Sequence record: KC295538
Origin: Escherichia phage PBECO4
DNA length: 64,000 nt
Strand: one strand, 5' to 3'
The position numbers were made by a program, and so were the translations under genes. Below, one piece after another: positions 18,624 to 57,647 of this stretch. Below the pieces are notes generated by a model that had not been told where the DNA came from, did no database searches, and saw only the letters and a list, made by a program, of their open reading frames with translations. Positions within the stretch are counted from its first letter, which is position 1; each line of letters opens with the position of its first letter.

Positions 18624-18650
18624 AAAAAAGCCCACTGTTTAAGGTGGGCT
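18624..18650 (-). terminator. rho-independent terminator (minus strand)
   Basis: Second copy of agcccactgtttaaggtgggct with A-run. Confidence 0.6.
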
Positions 18651-18667
18651 AGTGATTCAGTACTATA

Positions 18668-18967: not shown

Positions 18968-19051
18968 TTGATTATCCTTAGTTACCAGGGGGAACCGCTC
19001 CCCCGTGCGATGTAAAATATTGTACAGTACTAAAAACTAATTGCAAGTACT
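18968..19051 (-). promoter_or_regulatory. sigma70-like promoter + 5' UTR hairpin
   Basis: agggggaaccgctccccct hairpin. Confidence 0.55.
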
Positions 19052-19288: not shown

Positions 19289-19397
19289 TTTCTTATTCCT
19301 TAGTTACCAGGGGGAACCGCTCCCCCTATGCAAAACATTATACGCGTTTAAAAACTAATAGCAAGTATTTTAATAAAAAGTATTTGAAAAATAATTG

Positions 19398-19426
19398 TTG
19401 ACAACTGCATCCAGTACTGGCATAAT
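19398..19426 (+). promoter_or_regulatory. + strand sigma70-like promoter (TTGACA-N17-CATAAT) driving a short noncoding transcript
   Basis: ttgaca 19398..19403, cataat 19421..19426; downstream box ctaacccaccgggtgc; no + strand ORF. Confidence 0.45.
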
Positions 19427-19500
19427 TACTACATCAAGACGAAACAGTCACTAACCCACCGGGTGCCGAGATCCGTCTATTAAATGATTCAGTACTTAAC

Positions 19501-19524
19501 AATAAAGGGGATCAATCGATCCCC
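19501..19524 (-). terminator. hairpin terminator (minus strand; may also stop the + strand transcript)
   Basis: ggggatcaatcgatcccc with flanking A/T runs immediately 3' of gene 19531..19752. Confidence 0.5.
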
Positions 19525-19530
19525 TATGTA

Positions 19531-19752
19531 TTACTTAGTAAGGTATAAACAGAAGTCACCTTTATTTGCTACGCCGCCAGTGTAACGCGATGAATAGTTA
19601 GAAACGTCCTGGACTTCTGCTATTACCAGTGTATCATCATTCAATTCGTCGCAGAAGCAAACGGCTGGATCTTTTACGCCGATCTTGTCGGCATGTTCCC
19701 GCATAGATTTAACCAGTGCTTCCAGTTGAGAAAGAGTAGTGATATTAGCCAT
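19531..19752 (-). CDS. hypothetical protein
   Basis: Track ORF trimmed to ATG 19752 (MANITTLSQ..). Confidence 0.55.
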   Translation of the reverse strand: MANITTLSQLEALVKSMREHADKIGVKDPAVCFCDELNDDTLVIAEVQDVSNYSSRYTGGVANKGDFCLYLTK

Positions 19753-19836
19753 TGTATTTTCCTCATTACCAGGGAGAACCATTTCTCCCCTCTATGTAAA
19801 CTATTATACAGTACTGAAAACTAATTGCAAGTACTT
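19753..19836 (-). promoter_or_regulatory. sigma70-like promoter + 5' UTR hairpin
   Basis: gggagaaccatttctcccc hairpin. Confidence 0.55.
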
Positions 19837-20025
19837 TTAATTAAATTCCATAAAATCATTCTCAACGTGCACAACAATTTGATTGTTTTTAAAGTCCGCA
19901 GCGAACTCGATGCAATCATAAACCGCTTTTTGTGTTACAATGCTATGAGTACCAATCGGATTAATAGGGGATTGAATTGTTTCAATCTCGTTCCCTTGCT
20001 CATTAACAATTAAAATATTAAACAT
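19837..20025 (-). CDS. hypothetical protein
   Basis: Track ORF. Confidence 0.5.
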   Translation of the reverse strand: MFNILIVNEQGNEIETIQSPINPIGTHSIVTQKAVYDCIEFAADFKNNQIVVHVENDFMEFN

Positions 20026-20081
20026 CGCTGTTACTCCTGGGTAGTGTTAACTCGATATAAAGTATTATACGCCTTTATTGC

Positions 20082-20324
20082 TTAGTGTCCAGTACTTTTT
20101 AAAACATATTCATAAACACTACGCACATCATTGATCATCGCCTGGCGGTTAGCAGGTAACGCACCAGGATCGCCACTATCCCAGGCATTGATAAAACTCC
20201 CCAAATCATGAAAGATTTTATTCTGTAAGCCGATTAACTGCAATTCTTTTTCTTCAAGCTCTTTGATACGGTCAATTAAAAGACTCATTAGATAATCCTC
20301 AGTACTTAATTGTAAGATCCGCAA
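20082..20324 (-). CDS. hypothetical protein
   Basis: Track ORF. Confidence 0.5.
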   Translation of the reverse strand: MRILQLSTEDYLMSLLIDRIKELEEKELQLIGLQNKIFHDLGSFINAWDSGDPGALPANRQAMINDVRSVYEYVLKSTGH

Positions 20325-20632
20325 CGGTTACAATAGTGCCCGTCTTCCTCGTCATCGTCAACGAATTGACCGACGAAATTATCTACTTTCTCTTTGAGAT
20401 TCTGATAATTGTTTTCAACTTCCTTTAGACGTTCCTGGTAGTATTCCAGGGCTTGCACATACGCCGCCTCAGCCGTTTTCGCTCTTAAGGCTAAATTCAT
20501 GCCACGCGTTTCATCGTACATCCAAAAGCCATCGGTGCACTCACTGATTGACAATGATTTGGTTAACACTTTATAGTCAATTACTTTGCTCATTAGATAA
20601 TCCTCAGTAAAGGCGGGAACCACACCCGCCAT
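20306..20632 (-). CDS. hypothetical protein
   Basis: Track ORF; C-terminal CNRC. Confidence 0.5.
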   Translation of the reverse strand: MAGVVPAFTEDYLMSKVIDYKVLTKSLSISECTDGFWMYDETRGMNLALRAKTAEAAYVQALEYYQERLKEVENNYQNLKEKVDNFVGQFVDDDEEDGHYCNRCGSYN

Positions 20633-20649
20633 TGATTCAGTACTGAATG

Positions 20650-20889
20650 TTACATTCCAACCATTGCAGCACGGATCGCCGTAGTGCTATACTTGAATCC
20701 GTCCGGTGTTGTAGTAGTACCGTTGGCTTTTAATCTGCGGTACATACATTGGGCCGCAATATCTTTAGTTTTACATTGTGCGATGCAACTTTGAGCAAGC
20801 CGATATAATGACTCACCGTTATTAATCCACAATGAAACATTCCAATGAGTTTTGTTTTTGTGCCCGTTGTAAGTTTTAGTAGTAGCCAT
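20650..20889 (-). CDS. hypothetical protein, paralog of 22698..22937
   Basis: Shared GHKNKTHWNVSLWINN..LYRLAQ and C-terminal TPDGFKYSTTAIRAAMVGM. Confidence 0.6.
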   Translation of the reverse strand: MATTKTYNGHKNKTHWNVSLWINNGESLYRLAQSCIAQCKTKDIAAQCMYRRLKANGTTTTPDGFKYSTTAIRAAMVGM

Positions 20890-20985
20890 TTTTAAATCCT
20901 CGTTTAATTGAGCGGGAGAACCATTCCCCCGCCTCGATATAAAGTATTATACGCTTTTAAACTTAGTTTGCAAGTACTTTTTAAA
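20890..20985 (-). promoter_or_regulatory. sigma70-like promoter + 5' UTR hairpin
   Basis: gcgggagaaccattcccccgc hairpin. Confidence 0.55.
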
Positions 20986-21597
20986 TTAATATGCGATTGA
21001 TTCTACTACGTCATCAATAACATTGAATTGATACTCGTTACCCTCGATCAGTGCCGTGATGTTCTCAGTAGTGAATTGATCCTCATATGCATTCTCTAAA
21101 TCACGGTACAACTTGCGGGACAATTCACGAATAGTATCAGTGAGTAGTTCCTCAAGCTCATTAACTAACGTTTCTTGTTTTGCGGTTAAATCAGTGTAAG
21201 CCGATTCAATGTACCCGCTTACAGTATTCTCATGCGAGTAGTGGGAGTGCGAACGCTTTACACTCATCGCCAAATCATCTTCATTCAGCAAGTGACGGAT
21301 TGAGCGATACTTAGTTAATGCTCTTACCTTGCGTAAAAACTTCACTGCGTCAACGTGGTCAGTACTGATTGATGCACCGTCACCCTGGGACCAAAAACCA
21401 CTGAATTGTATTTCAGCTTCATTAATGCCATATTCCGGTAGTACTGTTTCTTTATAGTATTCAATTTCACTTTCAGAAAAATAATTGTCGTTTGAGTTTT
21501 TTTCACGTTCCCGAACCAGTTCGATAGCTGACGTTTGTTGTTCTGCGTTCAATTCAGAAAAATCCATAACGAAAGTAGTAGTAGTGATAGTTTTCAT
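20986..21597 (-). CDS. hypothetical acidic protein (203 aa)
   Basis: Track ORF. Confidence 0.6.
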   Translation of the reverse strand: MKTITTTTFVMDFSELNAEQQTSAIELVREREKNSNDNYFSESEIEYYKETVLPEYGINEAEIQFSGFWSQGDGASISTDHVDAVKFLRKVRALTKYRSIRHLLNEDDLAMSVKRSHSHYSHENTVSGYIESAYTDLTAKQETLVNELEELLTDTIRELSRKLYRDLENAYEDQFTTENITALIEGNEYQFNVIDDVVESIAY

Positions 21598-21819
21598 TTT
21601 GTAACCCTCATTCAGTAGTTGATGTAAGTATTATACGCTTTTAAAAACATTTGTCAAACTATTTTATCAGGGGAGTTTTTCGTGTGCCTTACTCCTGGGC
21701 TACTTAACGGGAAGTTACTTATTTCGTTCCCCGTCCTGATGTAAAACATTATACGCCTTTAAACATAGTTTGCAAGTACTTTTTAAAAATAGTTTTCAGT
21801 ACTGAATATTAAAAAAGTA

Positions 21820-21848
21820 TTGACAGCATTATCAAGTACTGGCATAAT
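21820..21848 (+). promoter_or_regulatory. + strand sigma70-like promoter (TTGACA-N17-CATAAT) driving a short noncoding transcript
   Basis: ttgaca 21820..21825, cataat 21843..21848; downstream ctaacccaccgggtgc box then atagatacactcccgcaccctatgggct box. Confidence 0.45.
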
Positions 21849-22022
21849 ATACCACATGACAACAGCTAACCCACCGGGTGCACAATTGTAACTATACTAA
21901 ACTAATTTTTCTATAGATACACTCCCGCACCCTATGGGCTACGGCTTATCTGCCAATGAATACATTATGCCAGTACTGACAAAATAAGTCAATACCGGCA
22001 ATTGTAAAGATTTGTAAACTAC

Positions 22023-22253
22023 TTATACTGCAATCGCGTCCAGGCTATAATAATAATAAGTGCCGTATTGGTGTACTTTATTACCTTTTATTTCAGTACT
22101 GAATGAATCCGAACGATTTGCATATGATGTTAATTTAAAGTACTTTGATTTGCTGATACGTTGCCATACACCACAGATCCGCTGTAAGTAAGTAGTTTTA
22201 TTCGTGGTAGTATCTTTTACGGTTTTAACTTCAGTCATATACATATTAGTCAT
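22023..22253 (-). CDS. hypothetical protein
   Basis: Track ORF. Confidence 0.55.
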   Translation of the reverse strand: MTNMYMTEVKTVKDTTTNKTTYLQRICGVWQRISKSKYFKLTSYANRSDSFSTEIKGNKVHQYGTYYYYSLDAIAV

Positions 22254-22340
22254 TTTTATTACTCCAGGTTATAGGCGGGAAGAGTTCCCGCTCTCGATGT
22301 AAAACATTATACGCCTTTAAACATAGTTTGCAAGTACTTT
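22254..22340 (-). promoter_or_regulatory. sigma70-like promoter + 5' UTR hairpin
   Basis: gcgggaagagttcccgc hairpin. Confidence 0.55.
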
Positions 22341-22607
22341 TTATTCAAGTACTGCAATCTTTTTAGTACGGTACACGGTCACGCGGTTGCCCTTTCGGTC
22401 GAGCTTTATTTCTACCACTCGACGCGATACACTATCGGGACTTTTTAAGGCCGCTAACCAGTACTGTAATGATCTGGCTGTACTACGCTTTACAATGGCC
22501 CAACGTTTACCACGTTCCGATTGTACGCCCATATCTTTAAACGTTGCCCCGTCCTGGCGTGCGGCGATCCGAGCTTGTTCACGCGTCGCAAAATACTTAA
22601 TATTCAT
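22341..22607 (-). CDS. hypothetical protein, paralog of 9448..9843
   Basis: Trimmed to ATG 22607 (MNIKYFATREQARIAARQDGATFKDMG..). Confidence 0.6.
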   Translation of the reverse strand: MNIKYFATREQARIAARQDGATFKDMGVQSERGKRWAIVKRSTARSLQYWLAALKSPDSVSRRVVEIKLDRKGNRVTVYRTKKIAVLE

Positions 22608-22697
22608 GCTGTTGCCCTTATCGTTGGTGTATGAATAAAACACTATTATAAAGTACTATCGCAAAAAATGATAGTACTTTAAATAAATTCTATTCTA

Positions 22698-22937
22698 TTA
22701 CATTCCAACCATCGCCGCACGGATCGCAGTAGTGCTATACTTAAAGCCGTCCGGTGTTTTATCTTGTCCAGTCTGTTCTAAAAATAGCATCATATGACGG
22801 GCCGCATCATTACGATTAGTATTGGCGGCAATAAAGTCCTGGGCCAACCGATACAATCCCTCATCGTTATTAATCCAAAGGCTTACATTCCAATGAGTTT
22901 TGTTTTTGTGACCTAAGAACATTTTTGATTTAGCCAT
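22698..22937 (-). CDS. hypothetical protein, paralog of 20650..20889
   Basis: Trimmed to ATG 22937 (MAKSKMFLGHKNKTHWN..). Confidence 0.6.
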   Translation of the reverse strand: MAKSKMFLGHKNKTHWNVSLWINNDEGLYRLAQDFIAANTNRNDAARHMMLFLEQTGQDKTPDGFKYSTTAIRAAMVGM

Positions 22938-23019
22938 TTTTTTAATCCTCTTATATAGTGGGGAACTATTCCCCACCTGATGTAAAGTATTATACGCTTT
23001 TAAATTTAGTTTGCAAGTA
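22938..23019 (-). promoter_or_regulatory. sigma70-like promoter + 5' UTR hairpin
   Basis: gtggggaactattccccac hairpin. Confidence 0.55.
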
Positions 23020-23253
23020 CTATTTTTTCAGTACTGGTAAACCTTTGATCTCACCTGGCTGTACTTCCTCAAAGGCGACCGCCATCATACGGCTATCATC
23101 TTCCTTACATTCTTCCATCGCATCACAAAAATGATTAATAACGTCCGGTGCAACGTCAACCACATCAAACAAGCCAACCTCAGTGCAACGGCTTAAAGCG
23201 TTTAATAGGTCAGTCAGTGCAACGGATTGAGAAACAGTTAAAATAGTACTCAT
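23020..23253 (-). CDS. hypothetical acidic protein
   Basis: Track ORF. Confidence 0.55.
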   Translation of the reverse strand: MSTILTVSQSVALTDLLNALSRCTEVGLFDVVDVAPDVINHFCDAMEECKEDDSRMMAVAFEEVQPGEIKGLPVLKK

Positions 23254-23347
23254 ACAATTAATCTCTTAATTATAGTGGGGAACTATTCCCCACCTGATGT
23301 AAAACATTATACGCTTTTAAACTTAGTTTGCAAGTACTTTATTAAAC
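23254..23347 (-). promoter_or_regulatory. sigma70-like promoter + 5' UTR hairpin
   Basis: Same hairpin as 22938..23019. Confidence 0.55.
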
Positions 23348-23710
23348 TTATTTGTAAATTTTGCCACTGTCAGCCCATACCAGGAAACGAGGCATATTAT
23401 CCCATGCATCTTGTTTTAAATTTAAACCGTGCAATTCCTCAGTAGTTGCCATCCCTGGTACTGGCTTACTACACACCGCGAAATTTTCGCCCATATACTG
23501 ATAAACCATCGTCAAATCATTTGAGATCATCTTATGGATCATCGCATCAAGCATCACGGTAGCGGCGTATTGTTCACGCTTAAGCGGCAGCATTTTAATC
23601 AGTTCGCGGTATGCGTCAATGTGAGTTTTAACCGTTGCCGCCGGAAGATCTTTCATCTCGTCGCGGAAGTTAACCAGGTTAGCAATAATTTTGGTGATTT
23701 GAGTTGCCAT
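23348..23710 (-). CDS. hypothetical protein
   Basis: Track ORF trimmed to ATG 23710 (MATQITKIIA..). Confidence 0.6.
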   Translation of the reverse strand: MATQITKIIANLVNFRDEMKDLPAATVKTHIDAYRELIKMLPLKREQYAATVMLDAMIHKMISNDLTMVYQYMGENFAVCSKPVPGMATTEELHGLNLKQDAWDNMPRFLVWADSGKIYK

Positions 23711-23800
23711 CGTTTTAATCTCTCTTAAAGTGTAGCGGGAACACTTCCCGCTCTCGATGTAAAACATTATACGCTTTTATCAGTACGGTGCAAGTACTTT
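23711..23800 (-). promoter_or_regulatory. sigma70-like promoter + 5' UTR hairpin (last unit before noncoding hub)
   Basis: gcgggaacacttcccgc hairpin. Confidence 0.55.
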
Positions 23801-23825
23801 CTACAAATACTTTTAAAATAGTTTT

Positions 23826-23917
23826 CTTTCTATATAGGAGTACTATTATTCAGTACTGAATCAATCCAGGGGAACTATCTTTCTATATAGGAGTACTATT
23901 ATTCAGTACTGAATCAA
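23826..23917. repeat. 39-bp direct repeat x2
   Basis: ctttctatataggagtactattattcagtactgaatcaa at 23826..23864 and 23879..23917. Confidence 0.7.
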
Positions 23918-24069
23918 CCAAATCACTACTACACCCCATAAAACGGCCTCAGACGCATTCTAACGCATTAATACACCTAAGCTATACATTTGCACCACTC
24001 CCAACAATCCAGGGCGTTACGGGCCGTTTAAACGCGTTAAATTATTTTCAATTATTTTGTTTTTAGGTA

Positions 24070-24097
24070 TTGACTTGATCCTGAAAAAGCGTATAAT
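24070..24097 (+). promoter_or_regulatory. + strand promoter (TTGACT-N16-TATAAT)
   Basis: ttgact 24070..24075, tataat 24092..24097; downstream gggtgcgg ... ccgcaccc long-range inverted repeat. Confidence 0.45.
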
Positions 24098-24284
24098 TAC
24101 TACATAGACGCGAGAAAGCGGAAACCCCAGAGGGTGCGGAATTACGCCCAAAATTCAAGATATAAAAAAAGGATACACTCCCGCACCCTAGCAGGTAAAC
24201 GCACTTTCTCAGTACTGAATTATAGTACCATAGTCCGGCCCAGGATGGCAAGCAAATTAATTAAAACTTTTTTCATCCAGGGTA

Positions 24285-24312
24285 TTGCTTTATTTTTCCA
24301 GTACTGTATAAT
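24285..24312 (+). promoter_or_regulatory. + strand promoter with TTGCTTTA box upstream of TATAAT (resembles a T4 MotA-box middle promoter)
   Basis: tattgctttat 24283..24293, tataat 24307..24312; downstream cccaccgggtgc box. Confidence 0.35.
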
Positions 24313-24533
24313 AGTTCCATCAAGTCGAGAAAGACTCAAGCCCACCGGGTGCATAGTTACGCCCAAAATTCAGTACTGAAAAAATTTTTAAAAATATCCG
24401 TCCAGGCCGTTGACATTGCCCCCAGTTTATAAGATAATGATTCCAGATTCAGAAAAATCTAACTCCAGATACTGCGGGGAAACTATCCCCACGCGGTAGG
24501 GGAACTATTGGAAAAAACAAAATAAAATTTTGA

Positions 24534-24680
24534 TTTAGCCGTCTATACTTCCAGACGTGTAACCATCTAGCCGTTTAGCCGTCCAAACGTCTAGCCATCC
24601 AGCCATCCAGAAATCTAGCCGTTTAGCCGTCTAGATGGATAGCCATCTTTACTTCCAGACTTCTGGAGGGCTAGACATAT
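24534..24680. repeat. iteron-like cluster of ~8 short direct repeats (TAGCCGT/TAGCCAT) flanked by tacttccagac repeats
   Basis: ctagccgtttagccgtc, ctagccatccagccatccag, ctagccgtttagccgtctag; tacttccagac at ~24546 and ~24651. Confidence 0.6.
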
Positions 24681-25705
24681 CTACGTCCAAAATCCACCCA
24701 GGGTAACTACGCCCAAAATCCGTCAGTACTATACCATAGATCTATCTTTTGAAAGGGAGTATTCAGTACTGCCACAATAGCCCTCACTATGTTACCCTAG
24801 GAGGATGAAGACTATCATGTAGTACTGAATACTGTTAGAGGGAATCCACCAGCTTGTGCTGGTGGCATAATGCTTTAGATTAAAATCAGTACTGACACCA
24901 TTCTGTTAATATCAGTACTGTTATTACGATTTTCATATGAGGTTCAAAAAGATGTACCACCACAGGAGGAACTATCTTTTCTGTACTGTCTCACGACAGG
25001 AGGTAGAGTAAATGAATTGTTCGCAGCAACTCATCACCCTATGTAGAACATTATACAGTACTGAATCATAATGTCAATAGCTTTCTTTCATTATTCAGTA
25101 CTGATATTCTTGAGAACTACCCGACTACAAACATCATTATATCCCACAAATCATAAACGTCCCAACGTAAATTTCAACTTTCGAAGATCCAACTTTTATT
25201 TCATAGGTACTCCAAAATTTTTAGGATCGAGATTTAGGATGGAGTACTAACCAACTTTTTGCTGGAGCCTCAAGGGGTAATGGAATTTTACCCCGAAGGG
25301 TAAAGGGGTAATTGAAATTAAGGTGAAAGTAATAATTCAGTACTAATCATTGCGTGATTACTTTTGATTACATTTGATGTAATTTGAAAAATGGAAAAGG
25401 AGCTTGGAAACTACAAAGTACGGCAGACTTCCTCTGCCTACTTAGTGGCATATCAGTACTGAATCCTTCCCGTGCATTCTTGAGCATTCTTGTCTATACT
25501 AATCAGTACTGAATCATATATAATCATTCTGTGATTCTACGGTGCTCATATAAATGTTTATATATGATTACTTATGACTACCTATGATTACGGGGTTTAG
25601 CCTGGGGAGAATCCTAGTGATCGCATTTGTCCAGGCTGAATTTTAACAATTCGCCTGTACATAAAGGTTGTTCACTAGGAGCTTCCCCTGTCTACTTGTG
25701 TTTAA

Positions 25706-29756: not shown

Positions 29757-29858
29757 GTGTAGTTCTCCTTATATTCCTTCTATAGTACACCAGTACTGAA
29801 AGGATGTCAAGGGTTTTCTTTATGGGGTAAATATGATATAATGAATAAGGAGGGAAAT
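29757..29858. promoter_or_regulatory. divergent promoter region between family B array (minus) and RCC1-like array (plus)
   Basis: Minus: ttgacatcctttcagtactggtgtactat; plus: gatataatg + aaggaggg SD before ATG 29859. Confidence 0.5.
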
Positions 29859-31061
29859 ATGTTACCTTTTGGAAGAATGGTTAAGTACGCAAATATTGCA
29901 CCAGGTCCAGAACCTGTAGAGTTCTCAGATGTTTTACAACAACATTATACAAACTGTATGTATCTACATAACCCAACTAATACTTTATATGGTTATGGTA
30001 GTAATAACATGTATCAATTTGGTCTTGGGAATTCAGCAGCAGTTTCGTCATTTACAGTACTTGCAAGGAACTGTGCAGCCTTTTGGCTTGGTGTTCAAGG
30101 TTCGTTGATGATTGATTTGGATAATAAAATATACTACACTGGGTCTGTGGCTGCATTTTCTGATTATGGAGATGCAACACCTGTTAATGGTTATTTGACA
30201 ACATGGACTGATGTTACTGTTGCATTTAATAAAATAGGTGTTATGGCTAATATGATCAAGAGTGTATATATAGGTGAAAGTACTAGAATATTATTAACCG
30301 ATGGTAGAGTAATTGCGTGTGGAAGAAATACCAATGGTGAATGTGGCTCTGGTAATAAAAATTCCATCCCTACACTCACAGTTATGACTAATATGGGTGA
30401 AGTTACACATATGGCATGTTCATTACAAGGAACGCACTATATCAAATCAAATAAAGATGCATGGTTTTGTGGTAAGGATAACTTTGGTGAAAGTGGATGT
30501 GGTGGTAGTTCTGTTGTATATTTGAACAAATTCGTGATTAGTAATGTAGAACATATTAGTACTACATACGATGTTACTTGGTGGTTTACTACTGGTGGGT
30601 CTGTATATTATAGCGGGGCTAACAGTACTGGACAAGCGGGTAATGGTACGACTACATCGGTAAATCAGCTAACACCAATTAGGAACACATCGGTCACGGT
30701 TGATGTAAGTAAGTACAGTACTTTTATTTGTCCAAGTAATATGGGAAATGCATCAATTGGTGCACCTATGGCACAATACGCACCATATGTTAGAAGTAGT
30801 GGTGCTAACTCATATGGTCAAGAAGGTAATGGAACTAATACATTAGTTAGAACTTGGAATATTTTTAATCTTAGTGCAATAAGTGGTGGTTATGAAAATG
30901 TTCTTATGGCATCTAAAGATTGGAGCAGAACCATAATAATTACTAAAGATTATAAATTATATGCATGTGGTGGCTGGAATGGAAATGGTGGTAGATTGCC
31001 AGATGGCACTTATAGTATTACTACACTAACATTAATGCCAACGCAGTTATGGCAACAATAG
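29859..31061 (+). CDS. RCC1-like repeat beta-propeller protein, paralog 1
   Basis: Starts MLPFGRMVKYANIAPGP after AAGGAGGG SD; repeated G.N..GQ.G-type motifs (YQFGLGN, TGQAGNGTT, YGQEGNGTN). Confidence 0.7.
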   Translation: MLPFGRMVKYANIAPGPEPVEFSDVLQQHYTNCMYLHNPTNTLYGYGSNNMYQFGLGNSAAVSSFTVLARNCAAFWLGVQGSLMIDLDNKIYYTGSVAAFSDYGDATPVNGYLTTWTDVTVAFNKIGVMANMIKSVYIGESTRILLTDGRVIACGRNTNGECGSGNKNSIPTLTVMTNMGEVTHMACSLQGTHYIKSNKDAWFCGKDNFGESGCGGSSVVYLNKFVISNVEHISTTYDVTWWFTTGGSVYYSGANSTGQAGNGTTTSVNQLTPIRNTSVTVDVSKYSTFICPSNMGNASIGAPMAQYAPYVRSSGANSYGQEGNGTNTLVRTWNIFNLSAISGGYENVLMASKDWSRTIIITKDYKLYACGGWNGNGGRLPDGTYSITTLTLMPTQLWQQ

Positions 31062-31069
31062 GAGGGAAT

Positions 31070-32179
31070 ATGTTACCTTTTGGAAGAATAATTAGGTATG
31101 GAAATATTGTCCCTGGTCCTAAAAAAATAATTAAAGTTGGTGCTTCTACACAAGGTCAATTCTTATTGACTGATTCACATGATTTATATTACATAGGTAG
31201 AAATCAAGGTGGTGAATCTGGAAATGGTAATACCAACACGGTGTCTTCGTGGACATTAGTAAGTGCAGATGTTTCTAATTTTTTCGTGGGTGATCGTACA
31301 CTTGTTATTATTAAAAATGATAATACTATATGGACATCAGGTCAAACGTACTGGTTCTCATCTTCTACAACTACTTCTTACAGTACTGTATTAGTTGAAA
31401 GGACTAGTTGGTTTACCAATGCTATACCAGTCAGTGAAATTGCTAATATTGTATGCACAAATGGTTTAATATTTGTACTTAGCACTAATTCAGTACTCTA
31501 TGGTGCAGGAGATAATGGATATCGTGGTTCTTTGGGTATTGGTTCATCATCAATTTACACATTAACTCAATGTGCTACGAACGTTCGTAAAGTAATGACC
31601 AATGCGAATGATAGTATGTATCTTACATTAGATAATAAGCTATATAGTTCTGGATGGAATAGTAGTGGGCAGCATGGTACGGGGAACCAAACACAAATTA
31701 ACACTTGGGGATTGCGTAGTTCTGGTGTAATCGATGCAGCCATTGGTGGTAATGCATTAAATTACTATAATGGTACATCATATTTCGTATGTGGTCAAAC
31801 TCCAAACTTTCTTAGTTCAGGTACGACTACATTCCGTGCAGTTCCTTTAAGTACTTTGCCTAATAGTTCTCCGTTGTTTATGACGAATTCACCTGCCTTA
31901 AATACTGCTACACAAATGGTAATTACTAGTACATATCAGAAGGGTGTTGGGGCGAACCGTGGTTTGGGATTAAACAATTCTCAAACTGGTGCTATATATA
32001 GTGCTACCAATTTACAATTACCCGTTGAAGTTAGTGAGATTAGGGATGTTCTTTTTAGTGATGGTTTGACATCGATATTAACCAAAAATGGAGACGTGTA
32101 TAGTACTGGATCGTATTACGCCATTCCAGGTGCAATCGAGGATGTTGCAGTCTTTACTAAAATTGATTTACCAAAATAA
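31070..32179 (+). CDS. RCC1-like repeat beta-propeller protein, paralog 2
   Basis: MLPFGRIIRYGNIVPGP; SGQHGTGN, RGSLGIG motifs; coupled to paralog 1 with no cassette. Confidence 0.7.
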   Translation: MLPFGRIIRYGNIVPGPKKIIKVGASTQGQFLLTDSHDLYYIGRNQGGESGNGNTNTVSSWTLVSADVSNFFVGDRTLVIIKNDNTIWTSGQTYWFSSSTTTSYSTVLVERTSWFTNAIPVSEIANIVCTNGLIFVLSTNSVLYGAGDNGYRGSLGIGSSSIYTLTQCATNVRKVMTNANDSMYLTLDNKLYSSGWNSSGQHGTGNQTQINTWGLRSSGVIDAAIGGNALNYYNGTSYFVCGQTPNFLSSGTTTFRAVPLSTLPNSSPLFMTNSPALNTATQMVITSTYQKGVGANRGLGLNNSQTGAIYSATNLQLPVEVSEIRDVLFSDGLTSILTKNGDVYSTGSYYAIPGAIEDVAVFTKIDLPK

Positions 32180-32185
32180 CATAAT

Positions 32186-32210
32186 GCCAGTACTCTGTAC
32201 TGGCTTTCTT
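32186..32210 (+). terminator. cassette hairpin + T-run (terminator) preceding TATAAC/SD of next paralog
   Basis: gccagtactctgtactggc followed by tttctt. Confidence 0.55.
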
Positions 32211-32249
32211 ATTTGTATTAAATATAGTATAACAAATAAAGGAGGGAAT

Positions 32250-33389
32250 ATGTTACCTTTTGCAAGAATGGTTAAGTACGGGAATATCGCACCTGAACTG
32301 ATTCTACCTAAAAACAGGTTACAATGTTCTGCTGATGCCAAATTTTATTTACACACAAATGGTAATCTATATTGGTTTGGTTCTTCAGCATATGGACAAA
32401 GTGGTAATGGTTCATTGGACTCTTCAACTGAATGGACTCTTGTCAACTCAAATGTTACACGATATTGGGGTGGGGTACAAGGAACAATTGCTATAAAGAA
32501 AGATGGTACTATTTGGTACACTGGTAGACGTACTGTTATTCCAATACTATCTTCAAACACTAACGGCGTTTGGGTTGATATAACACAGAACTTTACTGAT
32601 TTCGGTGTCAGTGCAGATGATATTGATAGTGTTGTGATATCTTCGTGTATGCGTGTATTTTTAAAAAATGGAAAGTGGTTCTACTGTGGTGCTGGTACTG
32701 GTGGTGTTTTTGGGAATGGATCAACTTCAAGCGTTTCACGATTCACCTATAGTACAATAGAAAATGTTATCAGTGCTGGTTGTGCAATATATAGTACTGG
32801 ATTAGTACTAAATGATGGTTCATATTGGTATGCAGGTAGAACGTTTGTATCAGGAACGACGACACAAAACTTGCTCACATTTACACAAGATACTTCGATT
32901 AGTAATGCAATTAAAGCAGTCAATACAAATGAAACTTCTTATATATTTCTTAATGATGGTAATGTTAAAGTTGCATCTATTAACGACTATGGACAAGCAG
33001 GTACAGGAAATAGGTCAGTAGCCCCAATGAGTACATTAATTCCAAATTTATCATTCCAAGGAGAAGTGGAGTTGGTGGGTGAGCTTGGGACAAACCTTAC
33101 CGGACCATCCTGTATAATTAATAATAATAATAAGTTATTTTCATGTGGCCTTAATTCAAATGGTCAATGTGGTATTGGTACAACTGATATGTATATAACA
33201 TCATTCGCTGAAATGGATCTTACTGCATTAGAAGGTAGTAATCTTAGTAGTTTTTGTAAGAGCTATTCTTATACGATGTTAGTTGACGAATATAATAATT
33301 TATACACATGTGGTGTACCCAATCTTACTGGAATGTCTTCAACTACTGTACCAACAAGGGTTCCTGATTCACTTCTACCGTGGAAATAA
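32250..33389 (+). CDS. RCC1-like repeat beta-propeller protein, paralog 3
   Basis: MLPFARMVKYGNIAPE; YGQSGNGS, NDYGQAGTGN, NSNGQCGIGT. Confidence 0.7.
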   Translation: MLPFARMVKYGNIAPELILPKNRLQCSADAKFYLHTNGNLYWFGSSAYGQSGNGSLDSSTEWTLVNSNVTRYWGGVQGTIAIKKDGTIWYTGRRTVIPILSSNTNGVWVDITQNFTDFGVSADDIDSVVISSCMRVFLKNGKWFYCGAGTGGVFGNGSTSSVSRFTYSTIENVISAGCAIYSTGLVLNDGSYWYAGRTFVSGTTTQNLLTFTQDTSISNAIKAVNTNETSYIFLNDGNVKVASINDYGQAGTGNRSVAPMSTLIPNLSFQGEVELVGELGTNLTGPSCIINNNNKLFSCGLNSNGQCGIGTTDMYITSFAEMDLTALEGSNLSSFCKSYSYTMLVDEYNNLYTCGVPNLTGMSSTTVPTRVPDSLLPWK

Positions 33390-33395
33390 TATAAT

Positions 33396-33420
33396 GCCAG
33401 TACACTGTACTGGCTTTCTT
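33396..33420 (+). terminator. cassette hairpin + T-run
   Basis: gccagtacactgtactggc tttctt. Confidence 0.55.
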
Positions 33421-33460
33421 ATTTGTATTAAATATAGTATAATGAATAAAGGAGGGAAAT

Positions 33461-34609
33461 ATGTTACCTTTTGCAAGAATGATGAATTATGGGAATATTG
33501 CCCCTGGTAAGGATAGGCGTTTTAAAATATATTCAAGTGATTCTATGTATCTTCATGATACTTATACTAATAAGTTGTATGCATCTTCTGCGACGAATTG
33601 GGGTACTGGAACAGGTGTAGCATCGAGTAAATTTATTCTTTGTGCGGAGAATGTTAAACGAGTTCTATTGGAAGATAACAGTAGTAGTTGTCAATTGTAT
33701 GAAGAGAAAGGTACTGGAAAAGTTTTTATCACTGGTAACACGAAGGCATTCACTGGTGTAACTGATACAAAAACTTTGTGGACGGACTGTACTACGTGGA
33801 TAACATCAGGTGGTATTAATGTTTCTGATATAAAATACATGAGTAGTTTTAATGATATGAAGGTGAATTTGATAACAAACGATGGTACGTTGTATTGTTG
33901 TGGAGTTAACAATAACTCGAACCTATCATCATTTGGTGATGGTACAAACATTAATTCTTTTAACACATTCAAAAGGGTAGATACTATAACTTCGGTCAAA
34001 AAGGCAGTTGGTAACATATACCTAAAAGAAGATAATACTTTATGGGGTTGTGGTTTTAACTATTACTATCAGTTAGGTACAGGTAATCAAACTTCTATTA
34101 CTGGGGTGACGATGATTTCTTCAGATGTTATAGATTTTGATGTAAGTTATCAGAGTACATTTTTTATTAAATCGGATAATAATTTGTACGCTTGTGGTAA
34201 ACAGTTCGGTGCACAATACGGGAACGAATTTGGCACAGGTGGTACTTCTTCATCTACCGATATACAATACAAAACTCCGACATTATTGAGTTCAGGAGTT
34301 TATACTCTATATACTTGTGTTAGTAACATGGCATCACATATAGTTAAAGGTGATGAAGTTCTATACGCATCTGGGTCGAATGGATTTGGTCAATTAGGTG
34401 TTGGTAATAATATTAATCAGTACTCATATACTCCTTCGTATACTTCGTTTAATAGTTCGTGTAATTTGGTACGCACTCCATCTGGTTCACTTATACTTAC
34501 GGACACTGAGAAATTATATTATTGTGGGTATGCTATGGTAGTAATGGGGGGAATTGCTGGACAAAACATTCTTAGTTATACAGAAGTTGATATGTCATTT
34601 ATACAATGA
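33461..34609 (+). CDS. RCC1-like repeat beta-propeller protein, paralog 4
   Basis: MLPFARMMNYGNIAPGK; YYQLGTGNQ, NGFGQLGVGNN. Confidence 0.7.
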   Translation: MLPFARMMNYGNIAPGKDRRFKIYSSDSMYLHDTYTNKLYASSATNWGTGTGVASSKFILCAENVKRVLLEDNSSSCQLYEEKGTGKVFITGNTKAFTGVTDTKTLWTDCTTWITSGGINVSDIKYMSSFNDMKVNLITNDGTLYCCGVNNNSNLSSFGDGTNINSFNTFKRVDTITSVKKAVGNIYLKEDNTLWGCGFNYYYQLGTGNQTSITGVTMISSDVIDFDVSYQSTFFIKSDNNLYACGKQFGAQYGNEFGTGGTSSSTDIQYKTPTLLSSGVYTLYTCVSNMASHIVKGDEVLYASGSNGFGQLGVGNNINQYSYTPSYTSFNSSCNLVRTPSGSLILTDTEKLYYCGYAMVVMGGIAGQNILSYTEVDMSFIQ

Positions 34610-34615
34610 TTTAAT

Positions 34616-34640
34616 GCCAGTACACTGTACTGGCTTTCTT
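34616..34640 (+). terminator. cassette hairpin + T-run
   Basis: gccagtacactgtactggc tttctt. Confidence 0.55.
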
Positions 34641-34680
34641 ATTTGTATTAAATATAGTATAATGAATAAAGGAGGAATTT

Positions 34681-48340: not shown

Positions 48341-48775
48341 TTAGATCATAGAACGATAATACTCAGGTAACTCAACATCAGTAAATTTATACCACTTAGG
48401 CTTCATCTGGAGCTTCTCAATCAAACGCTCACGAGAGGTTTTAATTTCTGATTCAGATGGTACGTAATCATTACAAAACTCAGCAGGGAAGCTGCTAATG
48501 TCGTTTACTTCAGTGTTTTGAATCTTCATACCACGACGCAAACATTCGTTGACAATATCGATATGACGCTTCTGTAAGTACAGCAACTTGTCGTAAAAGA
48601 ATGTCACATGACCTGAACCCAACAGATAAGTACTGTTAATTTTGAAATCACGTACACGCTTACGTGCTTGAACGTGTTTTTGTACAGCACCAAATACACG
48701 TGGGAGTTCACGATATTCAGCCATCAGGTGTTGGTCAGCAAGTTCTTTAACGTGTACTAAGTTAATGCGTGTCAT
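48341..48775 (-). CDS. denV: endonuclease V (pyrimidine dimer DNA glycosylase/AP lyase), T4 DenV homolog
   Basis: N-terminus [27 protein letters not shown] and [10 protein letters not shown] segment match T4 endonuclease V as I recall it; similar length. Confidence 0.85.
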
Positions 48776-52331: not shown

Positions 52332-52973
52332 TCAATAAAAAACTGGATCTTCTTCAGTAATTGGTATTTCTCTACGTACATCACACGAAAGAGGATCAGT
52401 AATGAATACATTCCCATCTTTATCCATCATCACATTACTTGAATGAATGTCTGGTACAAAACGCCCGTGAAACTCTTTCATGATGTTAGCAGCGACCGTC
52501 GCAATAGCAATCTCTTCAGAATTTCCACGCATATCATTCACTGAAGTAGCGTACTGACCAGCATGTGCATAAGAATATAAATCTCCAATTTTAGTACTAA
52601 CAAAGTCATCATAATTATTTTTTTGTTTAATTATAGGATAGTACTTGTCCATCTCATACCATCCAAAGTTTCCTTGTTCGTTTGCACTGTAGATCACTGG
52701 AAGAAACTTGGTTCCTGCGTTTTCAATGCAGTACTTTGCATAAGCACGAAAACCATCCCAGCGTGAAGTGGTTACTTTAAATGCACGCCCAGGATAGTTT
52801 TTATGTTCAACTACTACAGAGTACATCCCCATTCCAAGCAAAGTAAGTCCAGCAGCTTTAACTTGTGGAAAGATTACGCGTTCAGCATAAGGAATATCAA
52901 ACTCCATCGCACAACGAGTTTTTGATGGACGCAAAATGTCAATTAAAGTTTTGAATATTTCTTGCTTAGTCAT
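52332..52973 (-). CDS. atypical kinase-like protein (phosphotransferase fold)
   Basis: LGMGMYSVVV glycine loop-like, RAFKV lysine, DIHSSNVMMDKDGNVFITD resembling D.H..N...IID of APH/Kdo-kinase-type enzymes; start trimmed to MTKQEIF.. Confidence 0.45.
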   Translation of the reverse strand: MTKQEIFKTLIDILRPSKTRCAMEFDIPYAERVIFPQVKAAGLTLLGMGMYSVVVEHKNYPGRAFKVTTSRWDGFRAYAKYCIENAGTKFLPVIYSANEQGNFGWYEMDKYYPIIKQKNNYDDFVSTKIGDLYSYAHAGQYATSVNDMRGNSEEIAIATVAANIMKEFHGRFVPDIHSSNVMMDKDGNVFITDPLSCDVRREIPITEEDPVFY

Positions 52974-53010
52974 TACTTTATCCTCTGTAGTTAATATCAA
53001 CATCATAACA

Positions 53011-53809: not shown

Positions 53810-54061
53810 TCACCGGAACTCTTTTTCTATTCCCATTACATCAGTCTTACGCTCAGATAGTATACCTGAAGTATATGAATCTTTGTTGTCAAACGCATTA
53901 AATCCAATAGTTCTGTCGGTGTCGTGTATTATTCCTTTTGTGTATGAGGTAGTATAGAACTCCCCATTTCTGAAATCCTGCCTTGCTACTGAGCAATGAT
54001 AATCTGCACCATAAGCAGTACTGGAAAATAATACAATTCCAAATATAATATATTTTTTCAT
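53810..54061 (-). CDS. small secreted protein (signal peptide)
   Basis: MKKYIIFGIVLFSSTAYGADYHC. Confidence 0.55.
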   Translation of the reverse strand: MKKYIIFGIVLFSSTAYGADYHCSVARQDFRNGEFYTTSYTKGIIHDTDRTIGFNAFDNKDSYTSGILSERKTDVMGIEKEFR

Positions 54062-54098: not shown

Positions 54099-54127
54099 AA
54101 AAAAGGCTGACCGAAGTCAACCTTTTA
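54099..54127. terminator. TTGACT-containing hairpin element (copy 9)
   Basis: aaaaggctgaccgaagtcaacctttt. Confidence 0.5.
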
Positions 54128-54132
54128 AATGT

Positions 54133-55644
54133 TTATTTTTTATCCTTTCCAACACCACTGTCGTACTCTTTGAATGAGTTATCAAGTGTAGTTAGTGCAT
54201 ACTCATATGCTTCTGGTGATTCAATGTCAACATCATCTGCACCATTTACTAAATCAGCCCACGCCTTTTGAAGTTTACGAGCATTGTTACCAACATTATC
54301 TTTAATCCAACTAATGTTTTTGTTGATACTTTTACGATCAGCACCTGCTTTTTTGCCAATCTCGGATATCCACATCATTAGCTTTTGAAGTTCATGAATT
54401 GATTTATCGGTCATTTCAAGATGTTCTTCTTCCATACCTTCGGAATCAGATGAACCAACGTCAATTCCATGTTTAGCTAATAGTTTACCAAGTTCAAAGA
54501 ATGCAGCTTCAGCAGGGAAGTCATAACCTTTCTCTTTGTAGTTATTCCATGCACTATCAAACTCGTCAACAAAACGGTTAGCATAATCTGGATTTTTAAC
54601 TAATGCTTTATATACTGCAATTGCATGTTCAAAACCTTCTTTATCTGACCCAAACTCTTCCATCTCAGGACGATGAATGTATCCATCCATATCAACGGTA
54701 TCAGGTAGTTCTTCTTGCTCAGGCTCAACATCTTTCTGTTCAACTGCACCCTCTTCATCTGCACGCTTTAGATAACCATCTGGTGTTACCTTCTCACCAT
54801 GTTCTGCTTCATACTTTTTCATAGTGTTGAATGCAGCATCCATAGCTGTTACGAAGCGACTTTTCTCACCTTGTACATAAGATTTAAGTGCACTGTTAAC
54901 TGCATCTGATACGAGCTTAACCTTATCGTCTTTACCTTCTAAACGGTTTTCAAGTTTAGCCAGTACATTCTTGACTTGCTGGGCATTAGCACGGTCCGCT
55001 TTACCAATATTATCAAAAGTTTTAAGAATACCATCAAGACTTGCTTCACCCTGTTCAGGTTCTTTGGAATCTTCTTTGTGTGTACCTTCAAGTGCACGCA
55101 TGATAGTACTGAATACTTCAGTTGGTTCAGTGCTCTTATTACCTTTCATTACATCAAGTACAGCTTGTGCTTTACCTTTGAGTTCTTCTTTAGGAACTGC
55201 CTGTAGTGCTTTGACAATACCCTGAATCAACTGTGGTTTGTTAGCAAAGATCTTACCTAAGTTATCTGATAACTCTTTAACAGGGTTAGCAGCTTTAGGT
55301 ACTTCTGCTTTTGGTTCTTCTTTAGGAACTGCTTGTTCTTTCTCAGCACGTTCCATATCAGCTAGGCGTTGTTTTTGTGTAGCATTAAGAAGTCCCAATG
55401 AATTAACATAACGTAGCTTTTCTAGCTCAGTCATGTTCTCAGTACTCTTAACTTCACCTGCTTCTGCGTTTGCTTTACCAGCTAGACCAGTTCCTTGGTT
55501 ACGTGACCCACGTGAACCTTGACCTGCTTGATAACTATTTGGACGGCGGTTGCGTTCACTCCATTTATCAGAGTGACCAGCCATGTTACCACCATTTTTA
55601 TCAGTAAAATTACTTGGCATTTGATTTCTCTCCATAGATTTCAT
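54133..55644 (-). CDS. large hydrophilic protein (503 aa), paralogous segment shared with 55890..56273
   Basis: Charged K/E-rich; shared YVNSLGLL / YLDSLGLL and ..KALQAVPKEELKGKA / ..KLKVTPKEHFKATV segments. Confidence 0.6.
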   Translation of the reverse strand: MKSMERNQMPSNFTDKNGGNMAGHSDKWSERNRRPNSYQAGQGSRGSRNQGTGLAGKANAEAGEVKSTENMTELEKLRYVNSLGLLNATQKQRLADMERAEKEQAVPKEEPKAEVPKAANPVKELSDNLGKIFANKPQLIQGIVKALQAVPKEELKGKAQAVLDVMKGNKSTEPTEVFSTIMRALEGTHKEDSKEPEQGEASLDGILKTFDNIGKADRANAQQVKNVLAKLENRLEGKDDKVKLVSDAVNSALKSYVQGEKSRFVTAMDAAFNTMKKYEAEHGEKVTPDGYLKRADEEGAVEQKDVEPEQEELPDTVDMDGYIHRPEMEEFGSDKEGFEHAIAVYKALVKNPDYANRFVDEFDSAWNNYKEKGYDFPAEAAFFELGKLLAKHGIDVGSSDSEGMEEEHLEMTDKSIHELQKLMMWISEIGKKAGADRKSINKNISWIKDNVGNNARKLQKAWADLVNGADDVDIESPEAYEYALTTLDNSFKEYDSGVGKDKK

Positions 55645-55676
55645 TTTTTTCTCTATGTCTATATTTATAGTATAAA

Positions 55677-55704
55677 GAAAAGGCTGACCGAAGTCAACCT
55701 TATT
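55677..55704. terminator. TTGACT-containing hairpin element (copy 10)
   Basis: aaaaggctgaccgaagtcaacctta. Confidence 0.5.
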
Positions 55705-55710
55705 TTGTTA

Positions 55711-55824
55711 CTTAGATTGTTCTTGTGCAGGTGGATTTACTTTTTGATCCACTACATAGAATACACCACCAACCAGTACTGCGGCGATGAGTGCAGCAAC
55801 TACAAATTTTAAACCTTGCATATA
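55711..55824 (-). CDS. small hydrophobic peptide (37 aa)
   Basis: Own translation MQGLKFVVAALIAAVLVGGVFYVV..; bracketed by two hairpin elements. Confidence 0.35.
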
Positions 55825-55860
55825 TGATACCTCAGTTATATTGAGAAGTTATGATACAAC

Positions 55861-55888
55861 AAAGGGCTGACCTTAGTCAACCCTTTTT
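55861..55888. terminator. TTGACT-containing hairpin element (copy 11, variant loop)
   Basis: aaagggctgaccttagtcaaccctttttat. Confidence 0.5.
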
Positions 55889-55889
55889 A

Positions 55890-56273
55890 TTACTTCTTGA
55901 ACTTATGTTTTTCACTTTCGATTGCATTCACGATTTCATCATGAATTTTACGAAGATTGTGAGTTTTCTTGAGAGAATCATGCAATGCACGGAATGCAGA
56001 GTGTACAGTTGCTTTAAAGTGCTCTTTAGGAGTTACTTTAAGTTTCTCGATAATATCACGTACATAGATTGGGTGATCCTCAAACACACGATTAAGCTCA
56101 TGACCTAGTGATTCTAGGCTAAATGCTTTTTCACGGGATGGACGATCATGTGCAAGACTTTGGTCTGGTTTTAGAAGACCTAGTGAATCTAGATACTTGT
56201 GCTTATGTGCATTGTCTAGACCAGAAATATCAACATCATGTGATGGATCTTTCTTATTCCATTTATCAACCAT
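55890..56273 (-). CDS. hypothetical protein, paralog of N-terminal part of 54133..55644
   Basis: DKW, LDSLGLL, PKEHFKA shared motifs. Confidence 0.55.
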   Translation of the reverse strand: MVDKWNKKDPSHDVDISGLDNAHKHKYLDSLGLLKPDQSLAHDRPSREKAFSLESLGHELNRVFEDHPIYVRDIIEKLKVTPKEHFKATVHSAFRALHDSLKKTHNLRKIHDEIVNAIESEKHKFKK

Positions 56274-56388
56274 TTTTATAACTCCTATAAGAGATAAATT
56301 TTACTATAATATTTATAGTTCCGTTGTCATTTATATCGAATGACATAAAACATTATATCATAATAAGAATGGTTGTCCCAAAGTTAAA

Positions 56389-56845: not shown

Positions 56846-57442
56846 TCATAAATCACGAACAATATTCATTAAACACAATTTAGGTTTTATAGCATTCAAC
56901 ACCCATATGCATTCTTTGTAAGTAGCTATTATATCATCTAAATGCTCAGTTACAATGCTTTCTTGAAAATATTCTTCATCATTGAGCTTTGCTAATTTAG
57001 TAACATCACACGTAGGCACTATAGGTCTGGATTGTACACCCATTCCATTATTGATATTAGTGAAATGTACAAAATGGTACTTCACTACACCTTTATCTAG
57101 ATTTATTATACATGACAAATTTTCCAACTCAGTTAGTTTTTTATTACAAGTAACATTAATGAAACCAGCATTATAGGCTCTATAATCATCTACTGATATC
57201 TCAAAATCATTACGTTCAAATATAAGTGAAATGAGTTGGTCCAGTGGTTTGACATTCATATATTTTAATGAATTTACGTATGATACTTCAATCTTAGATG
57301 AAATTATCTTTTTACTAAGTGCAGTTAAATCTTTGTTAGATTTAACTGTTAAAACAATAGGTTTAAACCTAGAACTTTTGTTCTTTTTTGATACTTTAAA
57401 ACGACCTTTACGATTCATAATTTCCTCAATTAATAATTTCAC
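56846..57442 (-). CDS. hypothetical protein (198 aa)
   Basis: Track ORF. Confidence 0.55.
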   Translation of the reverse strand: MKLLIEEIMNRKGRFKVSKKNKSSRFKPIVLTVKSNKDLTALSKKIISSKIEVSYVNSLKYMNVKPLDQLISLIFERNDFEISVDDYRAYNAGFINVTCNKKLTELENLSCIINLDKGVVKYHFVHFTNINNGMGVQSRPIVPTCDVTKLAKLNDEEYFQESIVTEHLDDIIATYKECIWVLNAIKPKLCLMNIVRDL

Positions 57443-57647
57443 ATTTAACGTGTGGTTTATATAGCATAATTAACCCATTTTTAAGTACAATGATTGTTGC
57501 TCTGTTAGTAATCGAAACGTTTTTAATTATACTTTTTTTATATGTTTCAACATATTTCTCTTCATAATTTATACATTTAACATATTCTTTTTGTTTAGCA
57601 CTTACAACAGTACTGAATAATATCAGTACAAGTACTATATATTTCAT
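57426..57647 (-). CDS. small secreted protein (signal peptide)
   Basis: MKYIVLVLILFSTVVSAKQ. Confidence 0.5.
   Translation of the reverse strand: MKYIVLVLILFSTVVSAKQKEYVKCINYEEKYVETYKKSIIKNVSITNRATIIVLKNGLIMLYKPHVKCEIIN

Follow-up and report, generated by a model that had tools for sequence, protein, structure and literature searches.

Two paralogous late genes of the jumbo coliphage PBECO4 encode probable low-copy virion proteins

Introduction

The locus examined here raises the question of what a long, highly charged protein and a short one sharing several of its motifs contribute to a jumbo coliphage, and where in the particle they might reside. Both are encoded by open reading frames (ORFs), named A and B, within a stretch of 64,000 nucleotides (nt) of Escherichia phage PBECO4 (sequence record KC295538), referred to below as the window. 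The initial annotation, made from the sequence alone, regarded them as candidate internal virion proteins and compared them with the abundant, highly charged proteins found next to denV in T4-like genomes. The DNA of the region is 99.7% identical to that of Escherichia phages ECO103 4-12-1 and EC22.5-2 and 98.7% identical to that of 121Q (Asteriusvirus, about 350 kb). The source of the window is a jumbo coliphage of the 121Q/RaK2 type (Asteriusvirus). It possesses T4-like core genes but does not belong to the T4-like phages in the strict sense.

121Q matches the window in gene order, late promoters and hairpins, and its counterparts of A and B, gp201 and gp199, both carry the annotation 'virion structural protein'. 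The pair is already known as this catalogued family, represented by near-identical genes. In the present work we describe A and B as paralogues that are each preceded by a predicted T4-type late promoter. Their identity as late-made, low-copy virion proteins is well supported.

Results

Orthologues of A and B in virions

Both ORFs are present as initially annotated, with lengths of 503 and 127 amino acids (aa).

54133..55644, minus strand: ORF A, 503 aa, probable minor virion protein; orthologue of 121Q gp201, phAPEC6 gp035c, JP4_543 and RaK2 ORF275
55890..56273, minus strand: ORF B, 127 aa, short paralogue consisting of the N-terminal module (N-module) only, without the Gly/Ser/Arg/Asn (G/S/R/N)-rich stretch; orthologue of 121Q gp199 (99-100% protein identity), phAPEC6 gp037c and JP4_541

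They sit within a long same-strand run of small hypothetical genes. A is indeed a highly charged, K/E-rich protein (33% charged residues; K 56, E 56, D 36, R 18; net charge -18; isoelectric point (pI) 5.2), and B is basic (pI 9.05). The true start of A is probably Met9 at position 55620, giving 495 aa, because the homologues outside the closest relatives all start with 'MP...' at this residue and the 121Q counterpart is annotated with 495 aa. Met9 is preceded by GGAG at a distance of 9 nt.

Evidence from mass spectrometry (MS) of virions concerns orthologues only, in phAPEC6, JP4 and CBB (three proteomes, two genera). In phAPEC6 virions analysed by electrospray ionisation tandem MS (ESI-MS/MS), gp035c, the orthologue of A, was represented by 8 unique peptides at 28.8% coverage and gp037c, the orthologue of B, by 5 peptides at 48% coverage (PMC7247149). 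Liquid chromatography tandem MS (LC-MS/MS) of JP4 yielded 2 peptides of JP4_543 (A) and 4 peptides of JP4_541 (B; 29% coverage) (PMC12648861 supplement), and virions of the more distantly related Pectobacterium phage CBB contained CBB_38 with 9 peptides at 56.6% coverage (PMC5259590). The published coverage consists of protein-level percentages, which are compatible with cleaved and uncleaved N-termini alike. These detections, together with the annotation as virion structural protein in further relatives (RaK2 ORF275, GAP32_032, Serratia BF gp027 and Yersinia fHe-Yen9-04 g015), bear out the candidacy of A and B as virion proteins.

The abundance suggested for them does not hold. Label-free intensities in JP4, a rough measure of abundance taken from an orthologous phage, were 1.6e6 for A and 5.1e6 for B, which is at the level of the portal (1.9e6); the sheath and the major capsid protein gave much higher values (1.2e8 and 6.6e8) (PMC12648861 supplement). 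As a rough estimate, this would correspond to between a few and a few tens of copies of A and B in each particle.

Late promoters upstream of A and B

An exact octamer of the T4 late promoter type precedes each of the two genes.

55662..55669, minus strand: predicted late promoter of A, TATAAATA, T4-type; 17 nt before ATG-1 and 41 nt before Met9
56310..56317, minus strand: predicted late promoter of B, TATAAATA, T4-type; 36 nt before the ATG

On both strands of the window together, TATAAATA occurs twice as compared to 14.1 +/- 3.7 copies expected from dinucleotide shuffles, and the 7-mer ATAAATA likewise occurs twice. Both copies of the octamer are on the gene strand in the context aCTATAAATAT. 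The equivalent 63 kb of 121Q hold the same two sites only, before gp199 and gp201, the only genes annotated as structural there. In the head and baseplate module of 121Q, all seven copies are intergenic, correctly oriented and located 16-56 nt upstream of genes, including those for the scaffold, the major capsid protein, the tail lysozyme and the baseplate hub. Overall, nine of nine copies in the 113 kb of 121Q examined lie within 60 nt upstream of genes; besides gp199, gp201 and genes of the morphogenesis module, the targets in these stretches are endonuclease VII and one small unassigned gene. 121Q gp591 is annotated as 'sigma factor for late transcription', its gene lying outside the window and being taken from this 98.7%-identical relative. 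ATAAATA before structural genes was noted by the authors of the CBB study, who proposed it as the late promoter of the phage group (PMC5259590). Because A and B each lie behind such a promoter, both would be made late, during particle assembly.

The late-promoter core is strongly avoided across the window as a whole: the two occurrences in 64 kb of DNA with 35% GC both look functional. This points to selection against fortuitous late promoters in a region of early genes.

Paralogy and modular architecture

Conservation in alignments divides A into two parts.

55081..55620, minus strand: conserved N-module of A, residues 9-188
54133..55080, minus strand: variable C-terminal region of A, residues 189-503; acidic, all-helical; related phages differ here by gain or loss of whole modules

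The initial annotation had derived a relationship of A and B from shared DKW, SLGLL and PKE motifs. The two proteins do align by BLASTP (E=5e-8 over about 110 residues), and their PHROG matches are reciprocal: A matches phrog_20398 (2.3e-250) and phrog_16530 (5e-38, residues 9-188), B matches phrog_16530 (6.2e-56) and phrog_20398 (1e-3). The motifs DKW, Y-x-x-SLGLL and PKE-x-x-K share columns in multiple alignments. By these comparisons A and B are paralogous, and the sharing of motifs is not due to chance. An intermediate linking them is the metagenomic protein P0081 (171 aa), in which an A-type N-terminus (MPSNFTDKNGA...GSRGSRNQGTG) is fused to a B-type body. Since P0081 joins these two parts, B is read as an A-type N-module that has lost the G/S/R/N-rich stretch and kept M-x-DKW.

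The N-module begins with a basic G/S/R/N-rich stretch (HSDKWS, GSRGSRNQGTG), which is predicted to be disordered yet is strongly conserved. It continues with a short amphipathic helix, EKLKYFNSLGLL (KLKYFNSLGLL), and a Pro/Glu/Lys linker, and it ends with a four-helix domain (NPVKELSD...PKEELK...EVFSTIMRALEG). Distant homologues are 54-77% identical to A in residues 9-70 and 64-82% identical in residues 119-188, as compared to 16-21% identity with 25-57% gaps in residues 189-503. Short forms of the family comprise 127-270 aa and long forms 337-606 aa, with lengths of 417, 495-517 and 606 aa for A-type proteins among Asteriusviruses. Among these phages, which are otherwise ~87-93% identical, the C-terminal half of A varies, and B is 99-100% conserved. 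The orthologues of A in phAPEC6 and JP4 (417 aa) are devoid of a module of ~86 aa (A residues about 310-395), and those in JNE01 and UB carry an extra module of ~90 aa that is found only there. The alignments indicate that the long-form C-terminus is exchanged or indel-ridden between lineages. An internal duplication test of the C-terminus of A as a repeat of the N-module bundle was not significant (E 0.066).

In the AlphaFold2 (AF2) models, the N-terminal residues 1-70 are disordered (predicted local distance difference test (pLDDT) below 50) and only helices follow; a small four-helix bundle forms the conserved core. The overall values for A are pLDDT 69 and a predicted template modelling score (pTM) of 0.26. 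Foldseek with the model of A found nothing with E<1 in the PDB and only the own family among the viral models of BFVD. A sequence profile search of the PDB gave no match below E 0.1; as the PDB holds no RaK2-like capsid protein either, it is silent on the location of A and B.

Transcription units and TTGACT hairpins

The surroundings of A and B contain hairpins with a TTGACT hexamer, a further promoter and one small ORF.

55680..55701 (core 55682-55699), minus strand: hairpin AAGGTTGACTTCGGTCAGCCTT, predicted terminator after the 37-aa ORF; TTGACT as -35 box with TATACT 17 nt on, overlapping the late promoter of A
54105..54122, minus strand: hairpin GGTTGACTTCGGTCAGCC with T-run just after the stop codon of A, predicted terminator; the only copy without a TAnnnT -10 box
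55865..55882, minus strand: hairpin GGTTGACTAAGGTCAGCC (loop TAAG) just after the stop codon of B, predicted terminator; TTGACT-18-TATCAT as putative promoter of the 37-aa ORF
56352..56381, minus strand: sigma-70-like promoter TTGGGA-18-(TG)TATAAT upstream of B, without hairpin
55708..55821, minus strand: 37-aa hydrophobic ORF (MQGLKFVVAALIAAVLVGGVFYVVDQKVNPPAQEQSK) between B and A, counterpart of 121Q gp200

A and B would each form a small transcription unit of their own, closed by a terminator hairpin. Each unit would be driven by a sigma-70-like promoter (TTGACT-17-TATACT in the case of A) and, nearer to the gene, by the T4-type late promoter, read by a gp55-like late sigma factor. Flanking by TTGACT hairpins, as initially described for both genes, applies to A, which has one on either side (55682-55699 and 54105-54122); B has a hairpin at its 3' side only and none towards the upstream gene. 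The 37-aa ORF between them is predicted to encode a single-pass membrane protein. It has a terminator and a promoter of its own, the latter embedded in a hairpin, and as a separate transcription unit it does not belong to the paralogue pair.

In the window, the hairpin GGTTGACT(TC/AA)GGTCAGCC is present in 12 copies, with 0 expected, all on the gene strand. The 18-nt cores of these twelve GGTTGACTnnGGTCAGCC hairpins lie on the minus strand at 5928, 8185, 11404, 15024, 46104, 47894, 48818, 53016, 54105, 55682, 55865 and 59107. A TAnnnT hexamer follows TTGACT at a distance of 17-18 nt on the gene strand in 11/12 copies; the stem is palindromic, and the promoter reading exists on that strand only. 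One copy was also scored as an intrinsic terminator in our scan. Judged from the sequence, the TTGACT hairpins are composite cassettes of a terminator and a sigma-70 early promoter, of the type of the promoter early stem-loops (PeSLs) of T4-type phages (PMC2839356, PMC4122927). They share with PeSLs the intergenic, repeated occurrence in a plastic small-gene region and the combination of stem-loop, T-run and near-consensus sigma-70 promoter; unlike PeSLs, they hold the -35 hexamer inside the stem (GGTTGACT-TCGG-tetraloop context). The same TTGACT element is found 3' of the homologous gene in Serratia BF (about 5312-5340) and RaK2 (about 4192-4220 of the compared stretches) and is conserved across genera. 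An Rfam scan of the whole window gave no match.

Distribution of the family

A word-indexed search retrieved 68 clusters of the A type and 13 of the B type, whose sources are exclusively RaK2-like jumbo phages or assemblies of E. coli, Klebsiella and similar organisms containing them, and an exhaustive HMMER scan of 1.84 billion representative proteins retrieved 35 family members. By tblastn, the N-module was detected in 68 phage records belonging to Asteriusvirus, Alcyoneusvirus, Eneladusvirus, Mimasvirus, GAP32, Xanthomonas XbC2/XaC1 and the Salmonella Munch group. On the strength of these searches the family is confined to RaK2-like jumbo phages. K64-1, CBB_38, Yersinia fHe-Yen9-04 g015, Serratia BF gp027, GAP32_032 and RaK2 ORF275 are other listed members. 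The single family member of Pectobacterium phage CBB (14240-14758) lies inside the 22-kb direct terminal repeat and is therefore present in two copies per packaged genome.

The profile search that had been proposed matched A and B to their own PHROG families, and Pfam and NCBIfam gave no credible family for either. Profile comparison with the 121Q scaffold gp602 and the G/S/R/N-rich virion protein gp597 revealed low-complexity resemblance only and no relation. The main text of the RaK2 paper does not mention ORF275. In phAPEC6 the orthologue of A is labelled 'chromosome segregation protein' or SMC (structural maintenance of chromosomes). We reject this label, which rests on weak coiled-coil similarity (E 0.039) and is accompanied by no SMC match in Pfam or NCBIfam.

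Neighbouring genes and other repeats

The gene denV, to which the initial annotation referred, is not adjacent to the pair.

48341..48775, minus strand: denV, 5.4 kb and about 11 genes away from A and B

Closer to the pair, a 224-aa protein (52332-53006, minus strand; 121Q gp205) matches phrog_15752 (1e-98), annotated as T7 gp0.7-like protein kinase/host-transcription inhibitor. Two proteins of 83 aa (53810-54061, minus strand) and 73 aa (57426-57647, minus strand) have clear N-terminal signal peptides (MKKYIIFGIVLFSSTAYG... and MKYIVLVLILFSTVVSAK...) and are probably secreted or periplasmic phage products. In one relative, fEgEco12, a 'lytic conversion lipoprotein' is annotated at some point within its matched interval.

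A second, larger family of intergenic repeats occupies about 5300-25100, with about 20-30 copies of 50-120 nt. Its unit on the minus strand consists of TTGCAA/TTGACA-N17-TATAAT followed ~12 nt on by a stem-loop of the GGGGAGAA...TTCTCCCC type, and its sequence features are those of an early promoter combined with a conserved hairpin in the 5' leader, in front of many small ORFs. At 24540-24691 there is a tandem array with 8-nt periodicity (CGTCTAGC / CATCCAGC ...) in a zone with few genes, at about 25-26 kb, in which both the coding strand and the GC skew change over. This zone matches the ~2-kb unannotated gap between 121Q gp265 and gp266, and the array may be an origin or another regulatory region. 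On the plus strand, 29841-42100 contains about ten paralogous RCC1-like ('DNA condensation') genes with homologues in phAPEC6 and JP4 virions. None of them has TATAAATA, and several are preceded by a conserved cassette of their own, composed of hairpin GCCAGTACnnnGTACTGGC, a T-run and TTGTAT-N17-TATAAT.

Discussion

Where do A and B reside? We regard them as paralogous late minor virion proteins whose N-module docks and whose C-terminus is a payload, with the head interior as the likeliest location; we put the chances of this reading as a whole at about even. The conserved N-module would serve to dock the protein into the particle during assembly, and the variable C-terminus of A would be a lineage-specific payload. 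Inside the head, A and B could belong to the inner body of 121Q and phAPEC6, as accessory or associated components, or else be passengers that leave together with the DNA; they would arrive there without a cleavable targeting peptide of the T4 type. A phiKZ-like inner body is seen in bubblegrams of 121Q (PMC5646251) and phAPEC6 (PMC7247149). In favour of the head interior, which appears to be the most likely single location, the genes resemble the T4 ip genes as late-transcribed singletons in a plastic region, and the layout of a conserved N-terminal and a variable C-terminal part suits a docking module with payload.

Several observations weigh against this. Published virion proteomes of this group of phages also contain obvious non-structural proteins, among them a RecA-like protein, a single-stranded DNA-binding protein (SSB) and thymidylate synthase (PMC7247149), and therefore detection by MS alone is no proof of a structural role. 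Neither A nor B has a T4-like capsid-targeting decapeptide, and a protease site of the (L/I)-x-E type with family-wide conservation is absent, many homologues having lost the Glu. The first aliphatic-x-E in A is V122-K-E124, and B has none before residue 63; the candidate sites V122-K-E124 in A and S52-L-E54 in B are invariant in close relatives and lost in wider homologues. The major capsid protein, for its part, shows a shift from 42 to 37 kDa that does fit cleavage after L41-T-E43. The portal-level abundance of A and B speaks against a major building block of the inner body. There is no similarity to phiKZ inner-body proteins, either in the BFVD search or according to the authors of the phAPEC6 study, who found no phAPEC6 protein similar to them (PMC7247149), and no relation to gp602 or gp597. 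Finally, Serratia BF gp027 and CBB gp038 have no exact TATAAATA upstream.

Alternatively, A and B would be minor external or tail-associated parts, for instance adaptors or anchors for the hair-like fibres on capsid and sheath of 121Q, phAPEC6 and CBB (PMC5259590, PMC7247149) or accessory proteins of neck or baseplate, with the N-module bound to shell or sheath and the C-terminus directed outward. The low copy number would suit such parts, as would a variable mosaic C-terminus, which is usual for surface-exposed or host-facing components, the spread of the family through the 'hairy', fibre-rich RaK2-like clade (PMC5259590; PMC7247149) and the lack of the protease motif and targeting peptide typical of head-internal proteins. 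We nevertheless judge this placement unlikely: beyond a basic, disordered N-terminus the models consist of helices and contain nothing fibre-, beta-helix- or immunoglobulin (Ig)-like, the genes are far from the tail and baseplate modules, and B, the N-module alone, would be an anchor carrying nothing. It is improbable, too, that A and B are no true structural parts and instead nucleic-acid- or DNA-associated proteins made throughout infection, which are trapped with the DNA or co-purify with the particles. The sigma-70-like promoters upstream of both genes, the basic RGG/SR-like N-terminal stretch, the low abundance and the presence of clear non-structural proteins in virion proteomes agree with such a role. 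It fits poorly with the detection of orthologues in three independent proteomes of two genera at good coverage, with dedicated late promoters that are otherwise mainly found at morphogenesis-module genes in the examined stretches of 121Q, and with the acidity of A as a whole.

The internal proteins (IPs) of T4 carry a capsid-targeting sequence (CTS) that ends in (L/I)-x-E and is cut by the gp21 protease, and they are present in hundreds of copies in the head. On the T4 map, ipII and ipIII lie in a plastic region of small genes a few kb from denV. Like IPI, IPII, IPIII and Alt of T4, A and B are virion proteins that are not part of the shell and whose genes lie in a plastic region apart from the head module, with late and early promoters; they combine a conserved N-terminal part with a variable body. 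They differ in the absence of a CTS-like decapeptide, of a conserved L/I-x-E site and of sequence similarity, in an N-module that spans ~180 aa and is partly folded, and in a portal-like copy number. That they are IPs in the strict T4 sense, imported by a CTS, trimmed by a gp21-like protease, present in hundreds of copies and injected against host defences, is disfavoured and seems highly improbable. The combination of late and early promoters, the plastic small-gene region a few kb from denV, the conserved N-terminus joined to a variable remainder, an encoded gp21-like protease and the L-x-E cleavage that fits the major capsid protein would all accord with it. Against it, A contains no L/I-x-E up to residue 120 and B none up to residue 60, and no Glu is shared family-wide; the IP families are unmatched in Pfam, PHROGs and NCBIfam; abundance in the JP4 orthologues is at portal level and not at hundreds of copies; and the conserved N-region extends over about 180 aa and not about 10.

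The inner-body proteins of the phiKZ type, the gp93-97 family, undergo propeptide removal at S/A/G-x-E sites. A and B are comparable to them as a paralogous family of helical virion proteins in phages whose relatives 121Q and phAPEC6 have a phiKZ-like inner body; they are distinguished by their low abundance and by Foldseek matches to viral models of their own family only. Triplets of the S/A/G-x-E type are present in the A/B family (e.g. S52-L-E54 in B) but are common and not conserved.

Within the reading of A and B as docked minor virion proteins, we tentatively suggest, at a likelihood well short of even, that the ~180-residue N-module is an uncleaved virion-incorporation signal specific to RaK2-like phages, which loads exchangeable C-terminal payloads into the head. 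Such a signal would be a functional analogue of the CTS/IP system of T4, unrelated to it and uncleaved. A and B would then be the first identified constituents or associates of the inner body of 121Q and phAPEC6, or ejected effectors.

As it stands, our result confirms an existing annotation and concerns an ordinary catalogued family. It adds that the long and the short protein are paralogues with a conserved N-module and a swappable C-terminus, that a late-promoter signature singles out A and B among about 150 early-type genes, and that they are low-copy rather than abundant proteins. If it is true that the N-module is a packaging signal, it would offer a handle on the inner body and the ejected proteins of RaK2-like jumbo phages and may become a tool for loading cargo into their capsids.

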